64,000 nt of DNA, from the IMG/VR virus record IMGVR_UViG_3300037502_004185, positions 27,776 to 91,775 of that record; one strand, written 5' to 3'. This DNA is from a virus. Shown here in pieces: positions 1,112 to 61,422 of this stretch. Positions within the stretch are counted from its first letter, which is position 1. Each line of letters begins with the position of its first letter. The notes beneath the pieces are model-generated. The model was given only the letters and a program-made list of their open reading frames with translations, ran no database searches and was not told the origin of the DNA. The translations under genes and the position numbers were made by a program.

Positions 1112-2511
1112 TTACGCTTACCTCGTTTCTGATTACGTTTAGGCTTGCTTGGTTTCTTTGGTGTGTCTGGAATACGGCCACCAGCGGAATGCAGCGCGTA
1201 CTCTGTGTTGAATCGTTTGTTGATGCGCTTAATTAGGCTTACGCTGCGTGGCGCGAGCTCTTTCGCACGTTCAATGTGTGTTAGCGCTCGGTTTAGCTCA
1301 TGTTGAGGTACGTAGTCACTTAAGCGCTGCGCAATCTCTACTAAGTTCACTTGAGTACACCAATCCAAATCGAGGACTTTGGCCACACTCACGACTTTCT
1401 TTGTGCGCTTAACCGCACGATCTAAAGCTCGCTCAATTTGGTCTACTGGTACTTGCTTAGCGGCCTCGGTAAATTCTTCCCAATACTCTTGTGGAAGTAG
1501 GCACGATTCGTGTAGCAGCTTAGACATACATAGGGAGCCATCTTCACCAATGTAAGCCGTGTGGCCAGCTCCGGTATGCGTGTTCATTAGGTAAATCAGA
1601 CCAAAACGCTGATCGGGTTTACCTAGACCCTCTTGAGGCTGAATCGCTGTCGCCTTGCAAAGCATGTAGGCTTGCCAATTACCGCCTTTCCAAACGGATT
1701 TAAGATCGTGGTATTGAACCGCTTCACCTAGATATAGGTTGTCGTTGCGTAGTTCTTCGTTTTCGTGAGCAATGATCGCTGCGTAGGCCAACACCTCATC
1801 AATGTTGTGCATCACGTAGTGATAGTTCTCGTCAGCGTTCTTCAACCCCTCGCTCATGCTGTTGATTTGCTCAGTTTGAGTCGCCACCAGCTCACTTAGC
1901 ATTTCGATGTGTTCTTTGCTCTTGGTGAGCTCTGATTCAGTGGCCTTGTATGCCTCATCCAGTGTCGCGTTCTTAGCGGCGGTTGCTTTGCGTTTGTCCT
2001 CGGCAATGCGTAGTTGCTCTTGAACACTCTCAAGTTGCTGATTAAGCGATTCCAGTTCACCAGATGATGCCACTTGGTTAGCCAATGCAGCGGCTACCTT
2101 GTTCTCCACCAGCTTAGGAATGCCGTCCAGTTCTTGTTGAGCGTGACGCAACTCAGTGGTAAGGCGTTTGATCTCAGCTTCTAGGCGTTGGTTGTCCTTA
2201 CCTAGACGCTCGTTTTCTTCGCGTAGCTCGGTTGCAATCTGCTCGGCCTCGTTACGCTTTTTACGCATAACCTCAGTGCCAGCCATTGCGCGGTCACGCG
2301 CTGCAAGGATTTCGGTACGTTCATCAAGCATTGCCTGATATTTTTGCTTTAGCGCCTCGTCGGCCTTGGCCGTGCGTTGGGATAGTTTGAATTGCAAGTC
2401 ATCAATGATGTGCTGCATCAAACCAACAAGCGGGATCTCAAATTCTTTGATTTCAATTGGCGAATTTTCAGGAAGTCCCCAAGGAAGCTCTACAGTAAAA
2501 ACATCGCTCAT
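1108..2511 (-). CDS. Long coiled-coil protein with a globular C-terminal domain and basic tail
   Basis: 467 aa; heptad-rich E/K/Q/L/A stretch over about 230 aa. Confidence 0.75.
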   Translation of the reverse strand: MSDVFTVELPWGLPENSPIEIKEFEIPLVGLMQHIIDDLQFKLSQRTAKADEALKQKYQAMLDERTEILAARDRAMAGTEVMRKKRNEAEQIATELREENERLGKDNQRLEAEIKRLTTELRHAQQELDGIPKLVENKVAAALANQVASSGELESLNQQLESVQEQLRIAEDKRKATAAKNATLDEAYKATESELTKSKEHIEMLSELVATQTEQINSMSEGLKNADENYHYVMHNIDEVLAYAAIIAHENEELRNDNLYLGEAVQYHDLKSVWKGGNWQAYMLCKATAIQPQEGLGKPDQRFGLIYLMNTHTGAGHTAYIGEDGSLCMSKLLHESCLLPQEYWEEFTEAAKQVPVDQIERALDRAVKRTKKVVSVAKVLDLDWCTQVNLVEIAQRLSDYVPQHELNRALTHIERAKELAPRSVSLIKRINKRFNTEYALHSAGGRIPDTPKKPSKPKRNQKRGKRK

Positions 2512-2566
2512 CGGAAAATTTCTCTACTACTCAAAAATTGGGATAAGGGAATAGGGTTAAAGTGTT

Positions 2567-2866
2567 TTATTCTTGGTTAGCAAAGCGCTCTAGGCGTTCT
2601 TCTAAGTCATCCAGCCAAACCAGTATTTCGCTACCTTTGTGAACGTAGTCGAGGTCGCTGTCTTGGATTAGTTCGGCCACATGACGCGAACACCCGTTTA
2701 CTTCTGCCGCGATCGCACGGTTACTGAAATAAAAAGCACTTGGTGTGTCAGTAAAATCCGTTTCGCCTGTCGCCTCGCGCATTTCCATAAGCGCTTTAAT
2801 GGTCATTCGACGCAATACAATCAGTAAGTCGTCTTGAGTTGCTAACGCTAAATTTTGTTTACTCAT
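2567..2866 (-). CDS. Hypothetical protein, possible DNA-binding
   Basis: 99-aa ORF directly downstream of ssb. Confidence 0.6.
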   Translation of the reverse strand: MSKQNLALATQDDLLIVLRRMTIKALMEMREATGETDFTDTPSAFYFSNRAIAAEVNGCSRHVAELIQDSDLDYVHKGSEILVWLDDLEERLERFANQE

Positions 2867-2869
2867 CGT

Positions 2870-3409
2870 TTAAGCCGCCACGTAACTCAGCATCTTGTAA
2901 TGACGGAACTCGTTCTGGAACGGTATTTCATCGTCAAAGTCCATTGGTGGCTCGCCGTATTGCTGTTGAGATTGATCCCAACCACCCTGTTGCTGTGGTG
3001 AATTCTGTGGTTGTTGAGGTTGACCCCAACCGCCTTGTTGTTGCTGGCCACCAGCGCGGTTATTGCCAAGCATTTGCATCACGCCATTAAAGCCTTGAAC
3101 TACTACCTCTGTGCTGTAACGGTCTTGGCCTTGCTGGTCTTTCCATTTGCGAGTCTGCAATTGACCCTCGATGTAAACTTGTGACCCTTTGCGTAGGAAC
3201 TCCCCCGCCACTTCGGCCAACTTGCCGAACAACACCACTCGATGCCACTCGGTTTTTTCTCGGTTCTCGCCTGACGCTTTATCGCGCCAAGTTTCGGATG
3301 TAGCGACCGTGATATTCGCTACTGCGCCGCCATTTGGTAGGTATCGGATTTCGGGATCTGACCCCAAGTTACCAACCAGAATGACCTTGTTAATGCCTCT
3401 TGAAGCCAT
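2870..3409 (-). CDS. ssb: Single-stranded DNA-binding protein
   Basis: [16 protein letters not shown]...TEWHRVV...[11 protein letters not shown] fold; DFDDEIPF acidic tip. Confidence 0.97.
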
Positions 3410-3412
3410 TCG

Positions 3413-3733
3413 TTATTCTCCGGTATCTCTCTTTACCGCTTCGTCTCTGTTAGAAATCGCATCACCAAAGAACAAATAACCCACGTCTGTACTTGTGTAG
3501 ACCGCTATCAGTTCTAGGTTTTGCACCCTTGGGTTCACCTCGCCATTCTCGATTTTTCGATAAGTGTCTGGTGATAACCCGATTAACCTGCTCATTTCGA
3601 GTATGGTTAAATCTGCATGCCGTCTCGCTCGCTTGATTCGCGCTGCACGTTGCTGTCGATACTCAAGCGATTGGATTCGAGCGGCCTGTTTAGTCTTTGC
3701 GTCTCGCATTTTCATAGAAGCTCTCCACTTCAC
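3413..3733 (-). CDS. XRE-family helix-turn-helix regulator (start may be ATG 3715)
   Basis: RIKRARRHADLTILEMSRLIGLSPDTYRKIENG...P HTH_3 pattern. Confidence 0.85.
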   Translation of the reverse strand: MKWRASMKMRDAKTKQAARIQSLEYRQQRAARIKRARRHADLTILEMSRLIGLSPDTYRKIENGEVNPRVQNLELIAVYTSTDVGYLFFGDAISNRDEAVKRDTGE

Positions 3734-4121
3734 TTGCTAGTCGTTCTTCCTCGGTTGTAGTCGCCTTAATCAATGCAACGCGATATTCATGTAACCGATT
3801 CTTTGACCAATCGAGGCAGAGCTTTTGCCACTTGATAACGGCAACCGGATCGGAAAGGTCGTAACCAGTCCCAAAACAGCTACAGCACTCCCACTTGCTA
3901 AATAACGACTTGGTGTAACCTGTGCCATTGCAAGTCGGGCAGCGATCCGGTTTGTCGTCCAATGTCACATCGGCATCTTGTAACCGCTTCGCCAGAGCTT
4001 CGCGTTCGTCCGTAAGCTCTATGCCCTCGAATGTATCCAGGATTGATGGTGAGCTTTCGTCTCGCTCTCTTTGCCGTTGTTCCAGTTGAGATCGCTTAAT
4101 TTCAGAAATTTCCTCACTCAT
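3690..4121 (-). CDS. DnaJ-type zinc-finger protein
   Basis: CPTCNGTG and CCSCFGTG (CxxCxGxG) repeats. Confidence 0.75.
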   Translation of the reverse strand: MSEEISEIKRSQLEQRQRERDESSPSILDTFEGIELTDEREALAKRLQDADVTLDDKPDRCPTCNGTGYTKSLFSKWECCSCFGTGYDLSDPVAVIKWQKLCLDWSKNRLHEYRVALIKATTTEEERLASEVESFYENARRKD

Positions 4122-9433: not shown

Positions 9434-10387
9434 TTATTGGAATTTTCGTAATGAAGATCCGAAGTTGACGAATTGCTGTTTAATTTGAGGCGCAACACTC
9501 ACTTTTTGCTCTACTGGAACGTAGCTATTTGTCGGTAAAGTTGCCATTTTTCGGGAACCTAGCGACTCAAACATAGCTCGCACCACTTGATGATCTTCCT
9601 TGCTGGCCATGTTGGCGATCGCTTTGCGCTGCGCATCGGTCACATAGATAGGTAAAGAGTCCACAACATCAAGCAGCATCGAGGTTGCCTTAGCGTTTTG
9701 CTCTACCTTTTCACGCAACTCTGCGTTCACGCTTTCTAGGTACATAAGCTGGTTAGTAAGATCACCGACAAGCTCAACATTGCTCTGTTGAGTCATGTTC
9801 GCGTAGATATTACGCGCGGATTCCTCATCAAAACCTTGTTCCTGTAGCGATTCGAGGATCATTTGCTCGCTGTTCGCGCTTTCCATCATCATGGCCGGAT
9901 GGTCTAGGCTGATATAGTTCGGCTGCAATACGTAGTCCATACCGTGATATGAAGTAGTAATCGATGCCTCGCGTGTATCTTGGCCACCAGTCGCCCAGCT
10001 CCAACCACCAGCACGGCTATTGTACAAACCTAAAGCGATACGGCCTGTATCGGTATCTAAAAACTCTTGAGTGTGTTCAACAATACCGTCATCTGAACAG
10101 GTGATAGAGATTGTGCGGTTAGATGGCACGTTTTCTACCACAACCGGACGACCATTAATCATGATCACCTCAGTTTCACCAATTGAGAGCTTATTAGCGC
10201 GTTGGCGGGATTGATGGCCATAGTAACCATACGCCTCACCTAGTCGTAGTAGCTCTTGAGTTCGTGGGCTGTTGATCATCGCTTGCACGGCTTTGATGAT
10301 GTAGTTGCGCTTGTTGGCGCTAAGTTTTCGACCGTCATTGAATAGGCTGAAACGGTCGGATACTTGTTTAAGTGCTTTTGCTGTCAC
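9434..10387 (-). CDS. pro: Prohead processing protease (P1 Pro-like)
   Basis: LRLGEAYGYYGH, SRAGGWSWATGG and YISLDHP motifs as in P1 Pro; follows the portal gene. Confidence 0.88.
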   Translation of the reverse strand: MTAKALKQVSDRFSLFNDGRKLSANKRNYIIKAVQAMINSPRTQELLRLGEAYGYYGHQSRQRANKLSIGETEVIMINGRPVVVENVPSNRTISITCSDDGIVEHTQEFLDTDTGRIALGLYNSRAGGWSWATGGQDTREASITTSYHGMDYVLQPNYISLDHPAMMMESANSEQMILESLQEQGFDEESARNIYANMTQQSNVELVGDLTNQLMYLESVNAELREKVEQNAKATSMLLDVVDSLPIYVTDAQRKAIANMASKEDHQVVRAMFESLGSRKMATLPTNSYVPVEQKVSVAPQIKQQFVNFGSSLRKFQ

Positions 10388-25057: not shown

Positions 25058-28000
25058 TTAGATTTGCGCTTGGATCATGCTAGTGATGTTGCTTAGAGCG
25101 GCATCCATCAACGCTTCGTTCTCTGCCACTTGGTCGTTAGCTTCGAAGTAGGCGTAAGCTTGTTCTAGTGCGGTTTGGAACTCATCAACCAATTCCGGCG
25201 TAGGTTCACCAGTGAAATCTCGGATTTCTTTTAGTTTCTCTACATGTTCCATTTCTTCGTTATTACCCTCTGTTTCAGATTGAGGCGCTTCACTACTTAG
25301 ATTGAACGCTTTCACTAATAACGCTTCCATTTCCGCTGTATCGTCAAATTCACCGATCAAGTCATTGCCTTGGTATAGCGCGAACTTGTACTCGCCATCT
25401 TTAGCGATTGGGTAAATATCAACGTAGCGTTCGTTTAGCCATGAACGCACGGTTAGCGGAGCGTACACGTTCGCTGGTACAGAGCCATTTACTGAATGGA
25501 TACCAGCCGCAACGCTTGGTTGTGCCAATGCGCCTTTTTCGTTGTAGTAGGTATCCGCAGATTGCCAGCCCTTAATCGTCTCAAGCTGAGCTTTCGCTTT
25601 TTCGCTTAAGTCGGTCGCTAGAATGTCGAATAGAACGTCTAGGCTGTAAGTTAGTCCGTCCTCATCTTTCGCATTAATCGACTTAACTCGGCCTGTTGGG
25701 AATGTCACTTCCTGCTTACCAAGTTTTAGCTCTAGGTTGGTAAAGGCTTCTAGCTGCTCAAGTGCTTTCGCTTCTTCTTCGTCTAGGCTTTCACGGAATG
25801 AGTTAACGTCTAGTACGTCATCCTCTGCCTGTTCGCCTTGCTGGTGAATTTCAGTTAGAGACGCGAGCTCTACCACTTTGCGCTCTTTACCAAAATCAAA
25901 GTCCACGGTTAGGCGGCCACCAAAGAAATTGCGATCGTGGTAATCGGTCATCGTGTCGCTATTGTTGTAGTCGTATTGGCTTACATAAGCGTTAACGAAC
26001 TCGATCAGCTGATCTACTGCTTCGGTATAACGGCTCATACCGTGTGGCGTTGGCGAGTTAGGGTTATCAATCTCGAACTGTAGGTAAGCTGGATTGTAGA
26101 GCATGACGTTTCTTGGCAAGTCAGTCAGCGTTAGATCTAGTGTACCGTAGCGAGGCTTGCGTACTGAGATTTTAACGTCATTACTGATTTTGCCAGCTTT
26201 CTTAAGCTGAGCGATAAAGGCGCGGATTCGCTTAGCGATTTCACCCGTATCTCGAATGCCCTCGCTCTCATAGATTGAGCCAAATGAATATTGAGTTGGG
26301 TCTAGTGCGAGAAGTTGTTTTTCTTCCTCGGATACACCCTTGCTCACTTCATCTGCTGTGTCAGATTCTACGGCGTTCTTAGCACCCAATAGTTCAAGCA
26401 GTTTGTTAGTACCGTCAACCGTTAGGTAGCTGCGAGAATTGGTGTTAGCGACAAAGCGTAGCTCTTTGCCCTTGCTCGATTTCGCAGAGAAGAAACTGTA
26501 GCCAAATGTGTTTTCCATTTGGTTCTCTTGTTCTTCGGTTAGCGCAATGCCGTTAATCTTGCCGTCATCGTCCACCTTGGCCAGTAGCTTGTCGGCGTTC
26601 TCGCGTAGTGTTGGGCGCGAGTGAAGCGAACCTGAGCCGTTAATGGCCAGCGTTGAATACAATGATTCAAAGCCGTTGATTGTGGTGAACATAGCCGGAC
26701 TGACAGGCTCAAGTGGTGCGCTGTATTCCGTCTCTGCAATTTGCTCAAGCGTTTTGCCGTCCTTAAGCATGTTAAAGATTGCAATAGTGCTTTCTTTCAC
26801 TGCTTGGTCGTTTAGTTGAGTCGCTTTTTGCTGTGCTGCTGCGCCCTCTAGGCCAGTTTCTAGCACCTTGCCTGTGTACGTATCGATAACACTAAAGTCA
26901 GCTTGGCCAATAGTGCCTACTGGTGCGTAGCGCTTCTCGCGTGTCGCCTTGAATTGGCCTTTGTGGTTCAAGTCAGGCAATGCAGCAAGGCTAGGGAAGC
27001 CACGGCTTTCGTATTCCGCTTCGATAGCTTTTGTGTACCACAATGGCATGACTGAGTTATGGATAGCGCGCGCCATCTGTTCGTTGTCGATCTGCTCATC
27101 GTTATCCAAGTATCTAAAGCCATGAACAGCCAGGATGTCTTGGTTAGTTACACCCGCCATTGCGTAGTGCTGAGCAAAGAGCTCATCTGAACTTAGTTCG
27201 GATAGGTCAGGGTAGCTACCGTCATCGATCGCCTTAATGAAGCGCTCAACTTTTTGGTAGTCCTCGCCTTGGTCTGCCATTGCTGGAATGACGGTTTCAC
27301 CTTTTGCCTTGGTGTAAGCTACGTCACCCTCATGGTAAACCGTAGTCGCGCTAAACGCTTTTTCTACGTCATCCAGTGCCAACGCTTCGCCGTTCTCAAA
27401 CTTCTCGTATAGGTCGCCACGTAGCGCGCGTAGGTCGAACATTTTCGCCGTTGCGCTAAAGAATCCGTCACGGTAGTTCAAGATAGCTTGCAGTAGGTCA
27501 GCACGTTTCGCACGGCGGTTAAATGGGATGCGATGAGCCGTTAGGAAATCAGTGATCTCTTTGCGGTTCTTAAATTGCGCTTCCAATGACGCTAGGGTTT
27601 CACCTTGTAGTGATTCCACTAGGTGCGCTTGTTCTGAAATGCGCTTAGCTTGGTCATCCACTTTCTCGCCACGTTTTAGCGTTTTGCCAGTGCCTAGCGT
27701 TAGGTCAGCCAGCATAACGAGACGTTTGCGATCGCTTGGGCTCACTGACTGCATATCCTTAAGTTTGGATAGGGCAGTTTCTTGGAAGCGCATGCGGCCT
27801 TGCGTGTGTTCTGCTTGGCGTTGCAATTCAGCATCGCTTTGAACCAGCATTAGGTCTTCGGCAATCTCTTGAATCATTTCCGGTGTCACAAGGTCAATCG
27901 ATGCGCTCCATAGCTTGTACGCTTTTGGATTTTCCTTGCGGTTCTTCATTTCCGGTTGCTGGCGTAGCTGCTTAGCGAACGCTGCTTTGAAGCCCACTTG

Positions 28001-56315: not shown

Positions 56316-57289
56316 AGGTTTCTGACTCCCAACTCGATACGACACTGATACCGGTTCCCACGTTGGCAATGGGCGACACGGTTCATGATTTGTTTCTCTG
56401 GCATGGACTCATCCAGCTCGGTAGCGGGTAGCCGTTTATGGAATAGCACTGAGCACACCGAAAGAGGCGTAAAGGCGGTATTTCCGGTAAGTTCCACATC
56501 CAAAATAGGGATGATGGCCATGTGTTGATTATTCAGCGCCTTGGCTTGTGGGACGCTAACCATAACCATAGCGCCCGAACGTTTACCACCTTGGAAGCCC
56601 TCGACGGTATCCCAAGAGGCATAGTTACGGTTAAGAACGCGCTCAAACAGGGCTTCCTCTCCGATAATGGAGTAGTTCGCAATGCTGTGCTCTGCTTCCT
56701 CTGGATTCGACTGTTCCAGCTTGAATTGCTCGCTCATATCCATGTTCTTGAGCGACTTAAAGTGCATAACACCACGGCAGATAAACGCTGCTGAACCGTA
56801 ATCTCTGGCCATTGTTCGAATTAAGCGAGACTTAGTGCCACCAGCGTTTAAATGGTACGTAGCGCCACGCTCAAAGCTGTCACATTCGATTTTTAGATCG
56901 GGTAATAGCTCGGCCAGAATGTCTCTAGGCTGCATTTCGACAAAGAATCGAGGTGCTGTGACTGGCTCTTTAAGTAGGTGCGCGTCCTTTTGGAACGCTT
57001 GAACCGTTAGCATGCCGTCAGCGCTGGTGGACTTGGCCACAATGAATTTTTCAATCCAAACCTGATCGCCTCGTTCGTTCACATCGGCCATCGTGACCTC
57101 GATCTCTGAACCGCGCTTAATCCCGTAGTCATCCCGATAAACGGCAGCCTGATCCATGATTTCCATAACCAGCTTGTTGCCGTCCATCGAAGCGCACTCA
57201 ATGTAGGTAAACGAATGAATGTGCTCGATAGGTATGTCATTTTCGTTGGTGACAACTTTTTGGGCGAGAAAGTATTCTTTATTACTCAA
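56312..57289 (-). CDS. gp6-like baseplate hub protein
   Basis: TYIECASMDG and TYHLNAG motifs; GGGAGG RBS before TTG 57289. Confidence 0.75.
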   Translation of the reverse strand: MSNKEYFLAQKVVTNENDIPIEHIHSFTYIECASMDGNKLVMEIMDQAAVYRDDYGIKRGSEIEVTMADVNERGDQVWIEKFIVAKSTSADGMLTVQAFQKDAHLLKEPVTAPRFFVEMQPRDILAELLPDLKIECDSFERGATYHLNAGGTKSRLIRTMARDYGSAAFICRGVMHFKSLKNMDMSEQFKLEQSNPEEAEHSIANYSIIGEEALFERVLNRNYASWDTVEGFQGGKRSGAMVMVSVPQAKALNNQHMAIIPILDVELTGNTAFTPLSVCSVLFHKRLPATELDESMPEKQIMNRVAHCQRGNRYQCRIELGVRNL

Positions 57290-58043
57290 TGACTCGGCCT
57301 CCCATACCAATCGCGCCCTGACGGACAGTGATCGACTCGGCCTCATAAACCTCTGCAATCACTTCAAAAGAGATTGAGGAAGCAAACAGACGAGTATTTT
57401 CATGGTCTACTTCGGCGGGTTCGGTCATCGCATCTTTACGGCCACGTATCTCGATGCTGATTTCCATTTCAGTATCAGCGAGCATAGTTTTCGCTCTGAA
57501 TACGTGCTTACGCTTGCCCTTGGTATGACGTAGCCAAACCATTAAACCTAGCGCTAGGCGGCTAAGGGTAGACTGGTTCCAAGCTAGGGCATTAATGCGG
57601 TAGGTAAGCGCGACAAAGGATTTATTAACCACGGCATAAGCTTGATCTTGCTCATTGGTCAGTTCGCCACAATCAGCAATATCGACGTACTCCGCGCCAT
57701 CAACAAATCCAATCACCGGATCGCGCGTGATATAGCAAACAGGCAAAAGCTCATTACGGTTTGCTTTCACCTTGTCACCTAGTTTGGCTGTCAACTTAGA
57801 TAGGAATGACACTGGATCGGTAAAGTTGCCGTAATAAATCTTTCTCGACTTATCACGGCCAACAAAGCGAGAAAACTCACTGTTCTCTCGCCGTTTAGTG
57901 TCAGTCACAACTAAGGAATCAAGCACGTTCTGGAAAAAGGCAGCCACCGCACGATCGATGTCGGTTAGCTCTGTGTGTTCCACCTTGCCATCGAATGTCA
58001 CTACATCGCATGGGATTTCAAAGAACGTCTCATCCAGTTGCAT
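57282..58043 (-). CDS. gp24-like tail terminator
   Basis: 253 aa; 5-6-24 synteny. Confidence 0.65.
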   Translation of the reverse strand: MQLDETFFEIPCDVVTFDGKVEHTELTDIDRAVAAFFQNVLDSLVVTDTKRRENSEFSRFVGRDKSRKIYYGNFTDPVSFLSKLTAKLGDKVKANRNELLPVCYITRDPVIGFVDGAEYVDIADCGELTNEQDQAYAVVNKSFVALTYRINALAWNQSTLSRLALGLMVWLRHTKGKRKHVFRAKTMLADTEMEISIEIRGRKDAMTEPAEVDHENTRLFASSISFEVIAEVYEAESITVRQGAIGMGGRVIE

Positions 58044-58045
58044 GA

Positions 58046-58585
58046 TTAGTCCTCCAAATCGTCCAGCTCGTAATACTTACGGCCTTTTACGATAGTGATG
58101 CACTTATCGCTTCGGTGTAAGGTCACATCGAACTTGTGGAAGTTGCTCGTTAGGATAGGGAGGTAAGCCGATACTGGCTCATTGCGCTGGTAGCCGTCTC
58201 GCGTTTTGCGGCCTTTACCGGATCGATTGCCCTCATAGATTTGAATGACCGCGCAATCAAAATCAATCTTGGCCATGTCTGCGATCGCTGCATCGAGATC
58301 TTTGTGCATGTTAAGCACGTTCGCGCACAACATGACGCAAAAACGGCGTTTTGAACTGTCAATTTCGGCAATATTGTTCACTACGCCTTTGGCTTTTGAA
58401 CTCGGGTCAAAGTGAGTGACCGTCATGCTCTGCTTGTGGCAGTTAGTAAGACATTCTTCTGTTAGGTCGGGAAACTTACCGCAACCAAAGTTAAGAATGT
58501 TGTTCGCGTATGACCAGTTAGGCGCCAGTTTGCTAAGGCGCTTTGCACTGACTGGCACTTGCTTTCGGCTAGTCTGTAATGTCAT
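58046..58585 (-). CDS. Class I SAM-dependent methyltransferase-like protein
   Basis: ILNFGCG, HFDP, CANVLN and GYQRN motifs; GGAG RBS before ATG 58585. Confidence 0.7.
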   Translation of the reverse strand: MTLQTSRKQVPVSAKRLSKLAPNWSYANNILNFGCGKFPDLTEECLTNCHKQSMTVTHFDPSSKAKGVVNNIAEIDSSKRRFCVMLCANVLNMHKDLDAAIADMAKIDFDCAVIQIYEGNRSGKGRKTRDGYQRNEPVSAYLPILTSNFHKFDVTLHRSDKCITIVKGRKYYELDDLED

Positions 58586-58696
58586 GACCACTCCATGATT
58601 GGAGCAGCGCTTTAAGGATGGGCGGAATAGGGTTGATATGAGCGTAAATTATACACCTCCACACTATTAACCCTAAATAACCAAAATGGTGCATAT

Positions 58697-58768
58697 AAAT
58701 GTGATGCGCATCATATACATCTCATGAACTCTCAAGTAAATTGCGCGCGATTACAAATCATTATCATT
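58697..58768 (+). promoter_or_regulatory. Class II CRP promoter with a Fur box-like site at the transcription start
   Basis: AAATGTGA-TGCGCA-TCATA centred at 58707.5; -10 TAAATT at 58737-58742; ATTACAAATCATTATCATT at 58750-58768. Confidence 0.6.
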
Positions 58769-58804
58769 TACATTAACGTCAATTAAGTAGCAAGGGCTGT
58801 ATTT

Positions 58805-59401
58805 ATGCGCATTTATACTTTGATATTTTTCTTCCTCTTTTCCACTATTACACCAACTCTCGCAATGGCTTCATATCCACCTCTTTGTAATATTGTAAAG
58901 GCAAAAGAGCACCATAAAATCCCTAGTGAAAGCCCATACTGCATTGAAACAGAAGAAGCTCAGATCACGTTTGTTAATCTATCGTCAAACCCTGTTGAAG
59001 TGGTCAGCTTAAAAGATGCTACTCACCTTGTTTATCCAAATGAGTATGTAGTTACTACAGGCAGATTTGTAGTCGCAAACTCTAAAGGCGCTGTAGTTGG
59101 TAAAGAAGAACGAGGCATCGTTGTGTCTCGTGATTATGGTGGTAAAAAAGCAAATGTGAATCAAAGGATTGCACCTTTAGCCGTTTGGATTCCTAGCGCT
59201 GTTGGTGGAGCAATCTTGGGCGGAATGGGAGTTGTAGCTTCGAACCCTAGCGCTGGCCTTAGACCTATTGTGATTGGAGCATTCTCAGGAGCGCTTGGCG
59301 GAGCATTGGGTCCATTGATGGGAGCTGGTCAGTTTGGAGTAGTTGCAGGTGGTGCTTTAGGTGTCTCTGCTGGTGGAGCGTGTAGCAGTTGTCATATTTA
59401 A
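58805..59401 (+). CDS. Sec-exported glycine-zipper bacteriocin-like protein ending in CXXCH
   Basis: Signal peptide ending AMA|S; Gly/Ala-rich hydrophobic C-terminal 77 aa; ends GGACSSCHI*. Confidence 0.6.
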   Translation: MRIYTLIFFFLFSTITPTLAMASYPPLCNIVKAKEHHKIPSESPYCIETEEAQITFVNLSSNPVEVVSLKDATHLVYPNEYVVTTGRFVVANSKGAVVGKEERGIVVSRDYGGKKANVNQRIAPLAVWIPSAVGGAILGGMGVVASNPSAGLRPIVIGAFSGALGGALGPLMGAGQFGVVAGGALGVSAGGACSSCHI

Positions 59402-59673
59402 TCTGGACGTTTGCAGTCGCATCATACTTGGTGCTTTGCTTTACTCTGTTAAAGGGAAAGAAAGAACGATTATTATATGGCTGCATAATAATCAGTTTAA
59501 TTGTAGTGAACATCATATTTGACATCAGGGAGCCTCATTTTTTTGATGTTTTGTCTGCGTTCATTATCTATTTTCTTTCTAAGTGGGTTAAAGCAGATCC
59601 TAAGTATTTTCTTATCACAACCACGGTCATATATTGGCTCTACCCTCTAGTGTTGAGTGTTCCAACTACTTAA
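59389..59673 (+). CDS. Small multi-TM protein, putative immunity protein
   Basis: 94 aa with 3-4 hydrophobic helices; overlaps the upstream stop. Confidence 0.55.
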   Translation: MSYLIWTFAVASYLVLCFTLLKGKKERLLYGCIIISLIVVNIIFDIREPHFFDVLSAFIIYFLSKWVKADPKYFLITTTVIYWLYPLVLSVPTT

Positions 59674-59698
59674 AACTAAAGTAATCATTATATGACTG

Positions 59699-59730
59699 AA
59701 AAGAGTCGCCGGAGAGGCGACTCTTTCTTT
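59699..59730. terminator. Bidirectional terminator
   Basis: AAAAGAGTCGCC-GGAGA-GGCGACTCTTTC. Confidence 0.75.
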
Positions 59731-59764
59731 TAGAAACGCTATAAACGAGCCTATCCTATCTAGT

Positions 59765-60274
59765 TTAAAGCGTTTGGTTAAAATCACGCATTGGTATGCA
59801 GATATAAATCACGCCCACGTTCGCCGTACCATAGCCAACGGCCTTATGTACGTACCACCACACGGTTCGTAATCCCTCGGCGGTTTCTTCATCCCATTCC
59901 AGTACACTACCGATAGGAACATGGTGCGAAGCAATGCGCAGCATTAGCGGCTCTAAGGACTCGCCAAGGTTTTCGTCGCCATCATCCATCATGAAGAAGT
60001 TCTCTTGCTCATCTGGACTATCCAATAAAGCCACCAGCTCTGGATCGCTATAAGTGAGCGCATCTTGGTTGGTTTCTAGCTCTAACACTGATTCGTTTTG
60101 GTAATTATCATCCGTTGGTGCCGATTCTGGCTCAACAGGGCGATACAGGGACGCTTCAAAGTGATCAGGTGATAGTTTGATAGCCTTAATCCAATCATCC
60201 CTTAAAACACGATTAAAGGGCTCATGGCCTTGGTATCGAGCCTTTCTTACTACAGGTTTAACTACATCACTCAC
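59765..60274 (-). CDS. gp7-like head-tail connector
   Basis: ARYQGH..FN...DWIKAIKL.PD; WYVHK..YGTA as in P1 gp7. Confidence 0.78.
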   Translation of the reverse strand: MSDVVKPVVRKARYQGHEPFNRVLRDDWIKAIKLSPDHFEASLYRPVEPESAPTDDNYQNESVLELETNQDALTYSDPELVALLDSPDEQENFFMMDDGDENLGESLEPLMLRIASHHVPIGSVLEWDEETAEGLRTVWWYVHKAVGYGTANVGVIYICIPMRDFNQTL

Positions 60275-61422
60275 TTGATGATTCTCTCTAATCTGCTTGG
60301 TGTTACGTTCATCAATTTTGCGAAATCGGTCAGTGCTTCACTCTTAGTTTTCCCTTGCAGCTTGTAGCCGTCATGGAAGTTCTGGAAGCCGACCTTAATC
60401 ATATCGATATAACCTTTCTTCTCGTTGGACTCCTTACGTAGTTTGCGCGCTTGGCGCTTAATGGTTTCGCTTTCTCGTTTCTGCTTGGCGATCTGTTTTT
60501 CCACTGCTTTCTGAGCGCGTAGGTATTTCGCGTGTTCGCGCGTAGCGGCGGCCTTATCCACCACCGTTTTACGGTTTCGTGCTGCGGCTTTCTTCTCGTT
60601 CTCGTTAAGCAAGTACGTTTCGTTATCCGAGCCAAAACCAACACGGCGCGCTTGCTGCTTCATTTGATTGGCCAAGATGCGTTGCCATGCCAGCGATTGC
60701 AGCATGGTTGCCGCCTTGAGAGCGTGTTTACATGCCACGCCGGACAATTCAGGGTTTCGGATTTTCGGGAAAGCAAACTCTTTAGGCGGCGCTATGCAGT
60801 AGTTACCCATAGTGGCCAAGTATCGATACCAGTACTGGTGACGGCCACAGTCGCAATCAAAGGAAATACGGCCAGCACACGCCAATTGCACCGCTTGGTT
60901 GTAATCCCCATTAGGCGGTTCGTGTAGTAGCTCATCCCACTGCTCAAAACGCACCTTTACTCGGTGTTCTTCGTGTCTAGACACGCTTGAGGCTCGGACA
61001 CGAATAAGCGCGATATTGTTCTTAATACCGATCAACGTGGCCTTGTGAATGCCTGTACCGTCATCGACACGGTTGTTAGCGCGGTCGATGTCAATTTGAC
61101 GCGAGTTCTTCACCAAAAAGGCGTAGGTGATACCCGCTGTCTTACTGTCATAGACCTCTTTGTGTCGCTGGCGAGCCTTGTCGAACTTGATCAGGTCTTC
61201 TTTGGTAAACCGTTGCCCTTTAGCCTTTTCGCCTAGCGCTTTTAATGCCTTATTAGTTGGCTTGGCCAGCGTTGAGGCGGTCAGCGTTCGCTTGGCATTG
61301 CGGCGGTTTTTCTTTTGCGCCCGTTCAATCTTGTTGAATAGCTGGTTGAACTGTTTCTCATTGAGGCCAAGGCTGGCAAATGAGCCGTTATCCCGTTTCT
61401 CCGCTTCAAACTTCTTCGGCAT
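60271..61422 (-). CDS. gp25-like protein with a SWIM-type zinc finger
   Basis: GRISFDCDCGRHQYWYRY...IRNP.L.GVACKH. Confidence 0.8.
   Translation of the reverse strand: MPKKFEAEKRDNGSFASLGLNEKQFNQLFNKIERAQKKNRRNAKRTLTASTLAKPTNKALKALGEKAKGQRFTKEDLIKFDKARQRHKEVYDSKTAGITYAFLVKNSRQIDIDRANNRVDDGTGIHKATLIGIKNNIALIRVRASSVSRHEEHRVKVRFEQWDELLHEPPNGDYNQAVQLACAGRISFDCDCGRHQYWYRYLATMGNYCIAPPKEFAFPKIRNPELSGVACKHALKAATMLQSLAWQRILANQMKQQARRVGFGSDNETYLLNENEKKAAARNRKTVVDKAAATREHAKYLRAQKAVEKQIAKQKRESETIKRQARKLRKESNEKKGYIDMIKVGFQNFHDGYKLQGKTKSEALTDFAKLMNVTPSRLERIIK

Follow-up and report, generated by a model that had tools for sequence, protein, structure and literature searches.

The stretch analysed here, referred to as the window, comprises 64,000 nucleotides (nt) of the 91.8-kb IMG/VR provirus record IMGVR_UViG_3300037502_004185 (positions 27,776 to 91,775). 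Between positions 58697 and 59730 it carries a unit of two overlapping genes, here called gene 1 and gene 2, preceded by a regulatory region. Gene 1 encodes a protein with a signal peptide, glycine-zipper helices and a C-terminal C-X2-C-H motif; gene 2 encodes a small membrane protein. The features of the unit are:

58697–58804 (+), regulatory region with a CRP-like site, a Fur-box-like site and a ribosome-binding site
58700–58715 (+), CRP-like site, TGTGA-N6-TCATA
58747–58765 (+), Fur-box-like 19-mer, 13/19 to GATAATGATAATCATTATC
58805–59401 (+), gene 1, 198 amino acids, ATG start (from the list of open reading frames (ORFs) and the raw sequence)
58805–58873 (+), Sec-type signal peptide of gene 1, residues 1–23, ending TLAMA/S
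58874–59167 (+), two-Cys beta domain of gene 1, residues 24–121, with Cys28 and Cys46
59168–59380 (+), glycine-zipper helices of gene 1, starting at residue 122
59381–59398 (+), C-terminal C-X2-C-H tag of gene 1, CSSCHI, with C193, C196 and H197
59399–59401 (+), stop codon of gene 1
59389–59673 (+), gene 2, 94 amino acids, TTG start, about four hydrophobic or transmembrane (TM) helices

A sequence-only reading of this DNA had described gene 1 as a Sec signal, a two-Cys domain, a zipper beginning at 59168 and a CSSCHI end, and gene 2 as an overlapping 94-residue multi-TM protein. All of these elements are present.

The ribosome-binding site of gene 1 (AAGGG, 58791–58795) lies 9 nt 5′ of the ATG. 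The signal peptide has one basic residue and a hydrophobic core, and a Sec-type N-terminus is found in all long forms of the family. Its cleavage leaves about 175 residues, and release of a 77-residue core would need a further, putative cut before residue 122. Cys28 and Cys46 form a conserved pair that fits a periplasmic disulfide. From residue 122 onward, 71 nearly uncharged residues of GxxxG repeats (G158-G162-G166, G165-G169-G173 and G178-G182-G186-G190) lead to CSSCHI; the last 77 residues form three helices of the glycine-zipper type, marginally hydrophobic and nearly devoid of charge, and the extreme C-terminus reads GGACSSCHI. Three other assignments of gene 1 were rejected: a lipoprotein, as there is no lipobox before Cys28; a GlyGly-CTERM or other sorting tag, as there is no basic tail; and a cross-linked, ribosomally synthesised and post-translationally modified peptide, as there are no maturase genes.

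Relatives of gene 1 were collected by a word-indexed search, an exhaustive profile search over 1.84 billion representatives, and cluster look-ups. The family is small, and every named source is a Vibrio or a Photobacterium. A profile search matched 18 of 401 Vibrionaceae species genomes, two of the 18 through generic glycine-zipper lipoproteins only. When conservation of the terminal CXXCH was checked in 22 aligned full-length members (22–93% identity), only six columns proved invariant, namely Y45, C46, N58, C193, C196 and H197, so that half of them belong to the C-terminal motif, as its two cysteines and its histidine. The residues between the two motif cysteines vary freely (SS, TS, SV, NS, DS, YE, KS, LA, GK), and one Photobacterium branch has CMEACH, a CX3CH spacing. 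The histidine always follows the second cysteine directly, with a tail of 0–11 residues beyond it. In the member L036, where the zipper has degenerated, GCGKCHN is still kept behind a hydrophilic linker of 35 residues; the motif thus looks like an autonomous C-terminal tag. Motif, zipper and a downstream TM gene recur together in relatives down to 22–30% identity, which makes the pattern of gene 1 more than chance.

Conservation of both cysteines and the adjacent histidine at a spacing of 2 or 3 is the pattern predicted by a heme c site. The enzymes that would be needed appear to be at hand: CcmE scored above cut-off in 5/5 carrier genomes. Heme attachment by cytochrome c maturation (Ccm) system I has been reported even for short CXXCH peptides (PMC3884852), and the system II synthase in vitro needs both thiols and the histidine and takes a 9-mer (PMC8112865). 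The E. coli Ccm system also makes artificial microperoxidases, or heme tags (Braun and Thony-Meyer 2004, as cited in PMC3884852). As described there, these are, like gene 1, polypeptides exported by Sec that bear CXXCH outside any cytochrome fold, a precedent for system I accepting such a tail; they are engineered peptides, whereas the tail of gene 1 is natural, invariant and borne on a glycine-zipper domain. On these grounds, attachment of heme c to the C-terminus of gene 1 by the host system I is a nearly balanced proposition, judged slightly short of probable. If gene 1 is a toxin, heme c attachment there becomes somewhat probable.

The same invariant residues could serve another chemistry. 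In a toxin-immunity pair otherwise identical to the one proposed below, CXXC(H) would form a disulfide loop or bind a metal (Zn, Cu or a bridged Fe-S centre) for stability or receptor recognition, and this we consider somewhat unlikely. Class IIa microcins carry disulfides, and cysteines are taken as an indication of these (PMC12219008). No Pfam cytochrome family matches gene 1, and the potential distal ligands Met141 and Met172 are not conserved across the family; the missing cytochrome fold and distal ligand suit a disulfide or metal site, as do the C-X6-C tail of the divergent short form P0060 and the further cysteines found around the motif in some members. The heme c pattern itself, with an invariant histidine beside the second cysteine while the spacing varies, argues the other way. 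There is also no Pro or Gly-Pro between the cysteines, unlike redox CXXC motifs, and system I is known to act on CXXCH in exported, unfolded form (PMC3884852). Five of the 22 members (P0059, P0064, P0065, L034 and L035) have an extra cysteine pair, placed in the helix 1-2 loop and in a tail extended beyond CXXCH; neither cysteine occurs in the remaining 17, and both do in the decayed copy L013. Such a pair fits a predicted disulfide staple across an antiparallel three-helix bundle in an oxidising compartment and was counted in favour of the toxin-immunity pair proposed below; the five members may represent one or two independent events only.

Gene 2 starts 13 nt before the end of the gene 1 stop codon, with GGAG 11 nt upstream. 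A check on the conservation of the downstream TM gene found a small multi-TM ORF 3′ of gene 1 at every diverse locus examined (L006, L028, L029, L030/31, L032, L033, L034 and L035). These partner ORFs encode 81–111 amino acids with two to four hydrophobic helices and start −28 to +2 nt from the gene 1 stop. Relatives of gene 2 at 62–72% identity have an almost perfectly conserved C-terminal half, from which it follows that gene 2 is coding. A fixed position combined with fast divergence is the typical pattern of immunity genes, and gene 2 is a candidate immunity or partner protein.

The promoter region points to iron. For each locus the best match to the 19-bp Fur consensus was taken within 300 nt upstream of gene 1. 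The window group has a 13–14/19 site at −58, and among distant loci sites were found at L006 (15/19 at −42), L028 (14/19 at −40), L029 (14/19 at −82), L030 (15/19 at −61), L032 (15/19 at −101), L034 (15/19 at −36) and L035 (14/19 at −153), that is, 14–15/19 in 7/8 distant loci. At L033, where gene 1 is internal to an operon, and at L036 no Fur-like site lies upstream. Sites of at least 14/19 have a background of about 0.12–0.22 per kb (0.22 across about 135 kb of the loci, gene 1 sites included), and they occur in 15/151 upstream regions, gene 1's own regions being among those 15. Sites within 160 nt in 7/8 loci are thus far above chance (rough binomial p < 1e-8). Since Fur-like boxes are found family-wide, the module appears to be iron-repressed. 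Operons for siderophore-microcins and colicin V are likewise iron-repressed. A CRP-like TGTGA-N6-TCACA at −104/−105 is shared by the window group (9/10, including L002 and L003), L006 of P. angustum (10/10) and L030 (8/10), loci whose coding sequences are only 28–46% identical. The promoter architecture, a CRP site together with a Fur box, seems to be conserved.

Taken together, these data lead us to favour, tentatively, the explanation that the unit is a mobile, Fur-regulated toxin-immunity pair of bacteriocin type, carried as a moron, with a C-terminal tag that is probably a site for heme c attachment by Ccm. In such a system Fur, and probably also CRP, would control the promoter upstream of gene 1. 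The product would be exported by Sec and its N-domain cysteine pair would form a disulfide in the periplasm. Gene 2, translationally coupled to gene 1, would supply a small polytopic membrane protein that protects the producer. The zipper domain would enter the inner membrane from the periplasmic side and damage it, a step we rate as fairly likely. Ccm system I would place heme c on the exposed C-terminal motif to give a heme-tagged toxin, and release may take place at phage lysis or by an outer-membrane route. Receptor entry, membrane anchoring and redox damage are candidate roles for the heme.

The first of these roles would be played out in iron-starved neighbours, where the heme-tagged toxin would pass through a TonB-dependent heme receptor into the periplasm and then attack the inner membrane. 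Such conjugate entry is speculative and quite unlikely. Pyocin G does enter through a TonB-dependent heme receptor, the hemin transporter Hur, by protein contacts (PMC7322526). Use of such a receptor by a bacteriocin is the feature it has in common with gene 1, for which it is only proposed; pyocin G differs in binding by protein domains, carrying no heme, being a nuclease and having an unrelated sequence. Non-typeable Haemophilus influenzae was found unable to draw its heme from a covalently bound form (PMC5666386), a result that lends no support to uptake of a heme-peptide conjugate. The literature searched yielded no bacteriocin that carries covalent heme.

Several observations weigh against the toxin-immunity explanation with a heme tag. 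Neither gene has homology to known toxin or immunity families in Pfam, NCBIfam, PHROG and PDB profile searches, and the window encodes no outer-membrane export route. Partner proteins of different branches show no detectable or reliable similarity in cross-locus alignment. In three close copies of gene 2 non-synonymous changes outnumber synonymous ones, and purifying selection on gene 2 is not demonstrable from codon-position counts in these copies. The C-X6-C tail that replaces CXXCH in P0060 indicates that the zipper domain can do without the tag. The helices of gene 1 are only borderline hydrophobic (KD19 1.4–2.0), and if the three TM helices acted as stop-transfer segments the tail would end up in the cytoplasm, inaccessible to Ccm. 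A rough translocon score, based on approximate scale values, is +2 to +6 kcal/mol in all members but P0047 (+0.8).

Searches for distant homology gave little to place gene 1 elsewhere. Pfam, NCBIfam and PHROGs held no family match for gene 1 or gene 2. The Pfam glycine-zipper families did not match gene 1 at E up to 1, and OsmB appeared as a weak low-complexity similarity (E 0.34) for one relative. The colicin pore-forming domain had no match to gene 1 in Pfam or by PDB sequence, and a PDB sequence profile search with gene 1 returned low-complexity matches only, at E > 1. The ESM Atlas gave unnamed clusters only, all below 0.9. The phage database contained no match to the region or gene 1 by megablast or tblastn, and a genome-contig search (query A1) and two metagenome scans gave none. 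An initial AlphaFold model of gene 1 from 6 sequences was unusable (predicted local distance difference test (pLDDT) 40); the model from 22 sequences has a small beta domain (pLDDT 76–86) followed by three antiparallel helices. Foldseek found nothing in the PDB at E ≤ 0.001 with this model. VIA-align gave Z 5–6 to small double-stranded beta-helix or cupin-like folds and about 4.7 to helical ones, all within its stated noise. A complex prediction for residues 118–198 of gene 1 with gene 2 scored 0.00 and has no weight either way.

Some of these results bear on a non-toxin alternative, in which the unit would be an envelope module for iron starvation: a membrane monoheme or metal protein that, with its small membrane partner, handles heme or iron or gives envelope stress protection of the SlyB/OsmB type. 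We regard this as unlikely. Upstream Fur boxes together with a CXXCH motif would be expected of such a module, and the weak OsmB similarity, the weak N-domain fold matches to small cupin- or cupredoxin-like proteins including FtrB, and one locus that adjoins a cytochrome b561 gene are in its favour. SlyB, Pcp and OsmB share with gene 1 Sec-exported glycine-zipper helices of marginal hydrophobicity. They are, however, housekeeping or stress-regulon lipoproteins that have no CXXCH and no coupled TM gene, and their Pfam models miss gene 1, which also has no lipobox. The patchy accessory distribution on mobile elements with pseudogenised copies, and a partner gene that diverges beyond recognition, are likewise difficult to reconcile with an envelope module. 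No iron or heme transport genes adjoin gene 1 at any locus examined, which again speaks against it.

Among known bacteriocins, the nearest in outline to the favoured toxin-immunity pair are the class IIb microcins. Class II microcins are defined by a mature peptide below 10 kDa, a dedicated ATP-binding cassette (ABC) exporter of the peptidase-containing type (PCAT) together with an MFP (membrane fusion protein) encoded nearby, and an adjacent small inner-membrane immunity gene (PMC12219008). The last of these is matched by gene 2 and its equivalents at the diverse loci, with a predicted immunity role. Membership of class II, with which the sequence-only reading had drawn a parallel, is ruled out by a Sec signal in place of a double-glycine leader, a mature protein of about 175 amino acids and the absence of a PCAT exporter. 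The class IIb microcins MccE492, H47 and M have in common with gene 1 a Gly-rich membrane-active core of about 75–85 residues, a modification or uptake determinant at the extreme C-terminus, an adjacent small inner-membrane immunity gene, and production tied to iron limitation. The structure of residues 149–198 weakly resembles MceA in 7DYR (Z 4.7, within noise). Gene 1 differs in its 100-residue N-domain, its Sec signal, the lack of a PCAT/MFP exporter, of a Ser-rich tail and of siderophore-attachment genes, and its C-X2-3-C-H tag, and there is no sequence homology. The module thus resembles, as judged from gene content, a class IIb microcin in outline and is without the defining features of that class. 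The earlier proposal of a heme-bearing bacteriocin is partly supported: a class II microcin identity does not hold, and motif invariance, the TM partner, Fur boxes, CcmE, the reported action of system I on short CXXCH peptides and a C39 peptidase gene next to a short form speak in its favour.

Glycine-zipper membrane toxins with small inner-membrane immunity proteins also include CdzC/CdzD of Caulobacter and the type VI secretion effectors Tse4 and Ssp6. Compared with gene 1 by description, these are exported by type I or type VI secretion systems and have no Sec signal, CXXCH or N-terminal beta domain.

If the tag does carry heme, toxin modification without a dedicated enzyme would become a second task of cytochrome c maturation. 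The module would then be a heme counterpart of the siderophore-microcins, and heme receptors would offer a conjugate entry route of relevance to the design of Trojan-horse antibiotics. Even without heme, there is here an unannotated module resembling a toxin-immunity pair, restricted to Vibrionaceae and moving among phage-plasmids, plasmids and islands, which may influence how vibrios compete in the sea and in aquaculture.

The surroundings of the unit in the window consist of tail and baseplate genes of a P1-like phage:

57282–58043 (−), baseplate protein at the position of P1 gene 24 (phrog_1767, 3.8e-86)
58046–58591 (−), methyltransferase-like ORF (Methyltransf_23, E 6.7e-5, below the curated cut-off)
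59696–59733 (no strand assigned), hairpin terminator, −20 kcal/mol, z = −3.9, conserved in L002 and L003
59765–60274 (−), tail protein at the position of P1 gene 7 (phrog_1906, 1.2e-77)
60271–61422 (−), homologue of P1 gene 25 (phrog_1722), 46% identical to P1 gp25

The two-gene unit lies on the plus strand, opposing the minus-strand tail and baseplate genes. In P1 the order 26-25-7-24-6-5 is gapless, and genes 7 and 24 overlap with no gene between them; the unit is therefore an insertion relative to P1. The P1 comparison and the PHROG matches thus bear out the earlier suggestion of an insertion against the direction of the tail operon. The 1.7-kb insert that parts the gene 7 and gene 24 homologues holds the methyltransferase-like ORF and the two-gene unit only. 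That ORF is on the operon strand, outside the unit, and is also present in L002 and L003. The insert, flanked by tail genes, encodes neither a modification enzyme nor an ABC exporter, as had been noted from the sequence. GC content is 36–38% across the unit and about 50% in the flanks, and the same gene pair occupies the same site in two related IMG/VR contigs, both phage-plasmids. Insertion relative to P1, low GC, an own terminator and regulatory signals, and opposite orientation are the marks of phage morons, and they identify the unit as one, carried by a P1-like Vibrio phage-plasmid.

T/A runs flank the hairpin on either side, and transcription of the minus-strand gene 7 homologue may therefore end here as well. 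The hairpin lies 32 nt beyond the stop of that gene and, without read-through, may cut the tail operon transcript short. Rfam gave no match in the region. In L002 a CcdB/CcdA-like pair, recognised by eye, lies downstream of the moron (9458–10029, minus strand), and the tail-gene site appears to collect cargo.

A position among tail genes, with an own terminator and low GC, would also suit a module that benefits the prophage, with a periplasmic and inner-membrane pair acting in superinfection exclusion or abortive infection in the lysogen. One relative within a helicase/HNH island and the CcdB-like pair of L002 could be read in the same way. Such a function is very unlikely, given that most family members lie outside phages and that neither Fur control nor an invariant motif of heme type would obviously serve exclusion.

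The contexts outside the phage-plasmid include a serine recombinase, an integrase fragment, a TrwC/TraI relaxase (of a plasmid or an integrative and conjugative element), an island with a 2107-residue helicase and an HNH nuclease, and a group with cytochrome b561, GNAT and outer-membrane protein genes. V. alginolyticus, V. parahaemolyticus, V. campbellii and Photobacterium are among the carriers. In L016 and L017 (G346:C18 and G371:C2, from two species) a remnant of the gene 1 C-terminus with shared in-frame stops is followed by an intact 62-residue ORF with two TM segments, which looks like an orphan immunity gene. The patchy, mobile distribution and the decayed toxin beside an intact TM ORF were counted in favour of the toxin-immunity explanation.

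In the short forms P0055, P0056, P0048 and L033 the beta domain gives way to a signal peptide plus a leader about 30 residues long. L033 (G214:C25) is the only short-form locus whose neighbouring DNA was examined. Positions 2057–4081 on its minus strand hold, in order, an outer-membrane-protein-like gene of 246 codons, a short gene 1 ending in CSGCH, a TM gene and a Peptidase_C39 lipoprotein gene. The C39 domain (Pfam E 3.8e-8) is nearest to the NCBIfam models FapD (5.8e-5) and FilB; the lipoprotein is stand-alone and not a PCAT, and its gene is split by a frameshift. These neighbours hint at periplasmic processing and a putative outer-membrane exit route. They could also recall Fap-like export of a self-assembling surface fibre, and the Gly/Ala/Ser-rich composition of gene 1 would suit an amyloid-type subunit. 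This last alternative is highly improbable: L033 is a single locus with a frameshifted peptidase gene, and the long forms have no such neighbours. MccE492 both self-assembles and is toxic, so that fibre and toxin need not exclude each other, a point also counted against a separate fibre explanation.

A weak match (E 1e-4) to the two-Cys beta domain alone was seen in L022 (G179:C92), a protein with an acidic C-terminus and no zipper, and the N-domain of gene 1 may be a module with more than one use. In L032 the copy of gene 1 carries an internal deletion. On V. alginolyticus chromosomes (cluster 5, with P0005, P0027 and others, on 3.3-Mb contigs) copies of 152 amino acids start inside the N-domain and have no signal peptide; these are probably truncated or mis-started.

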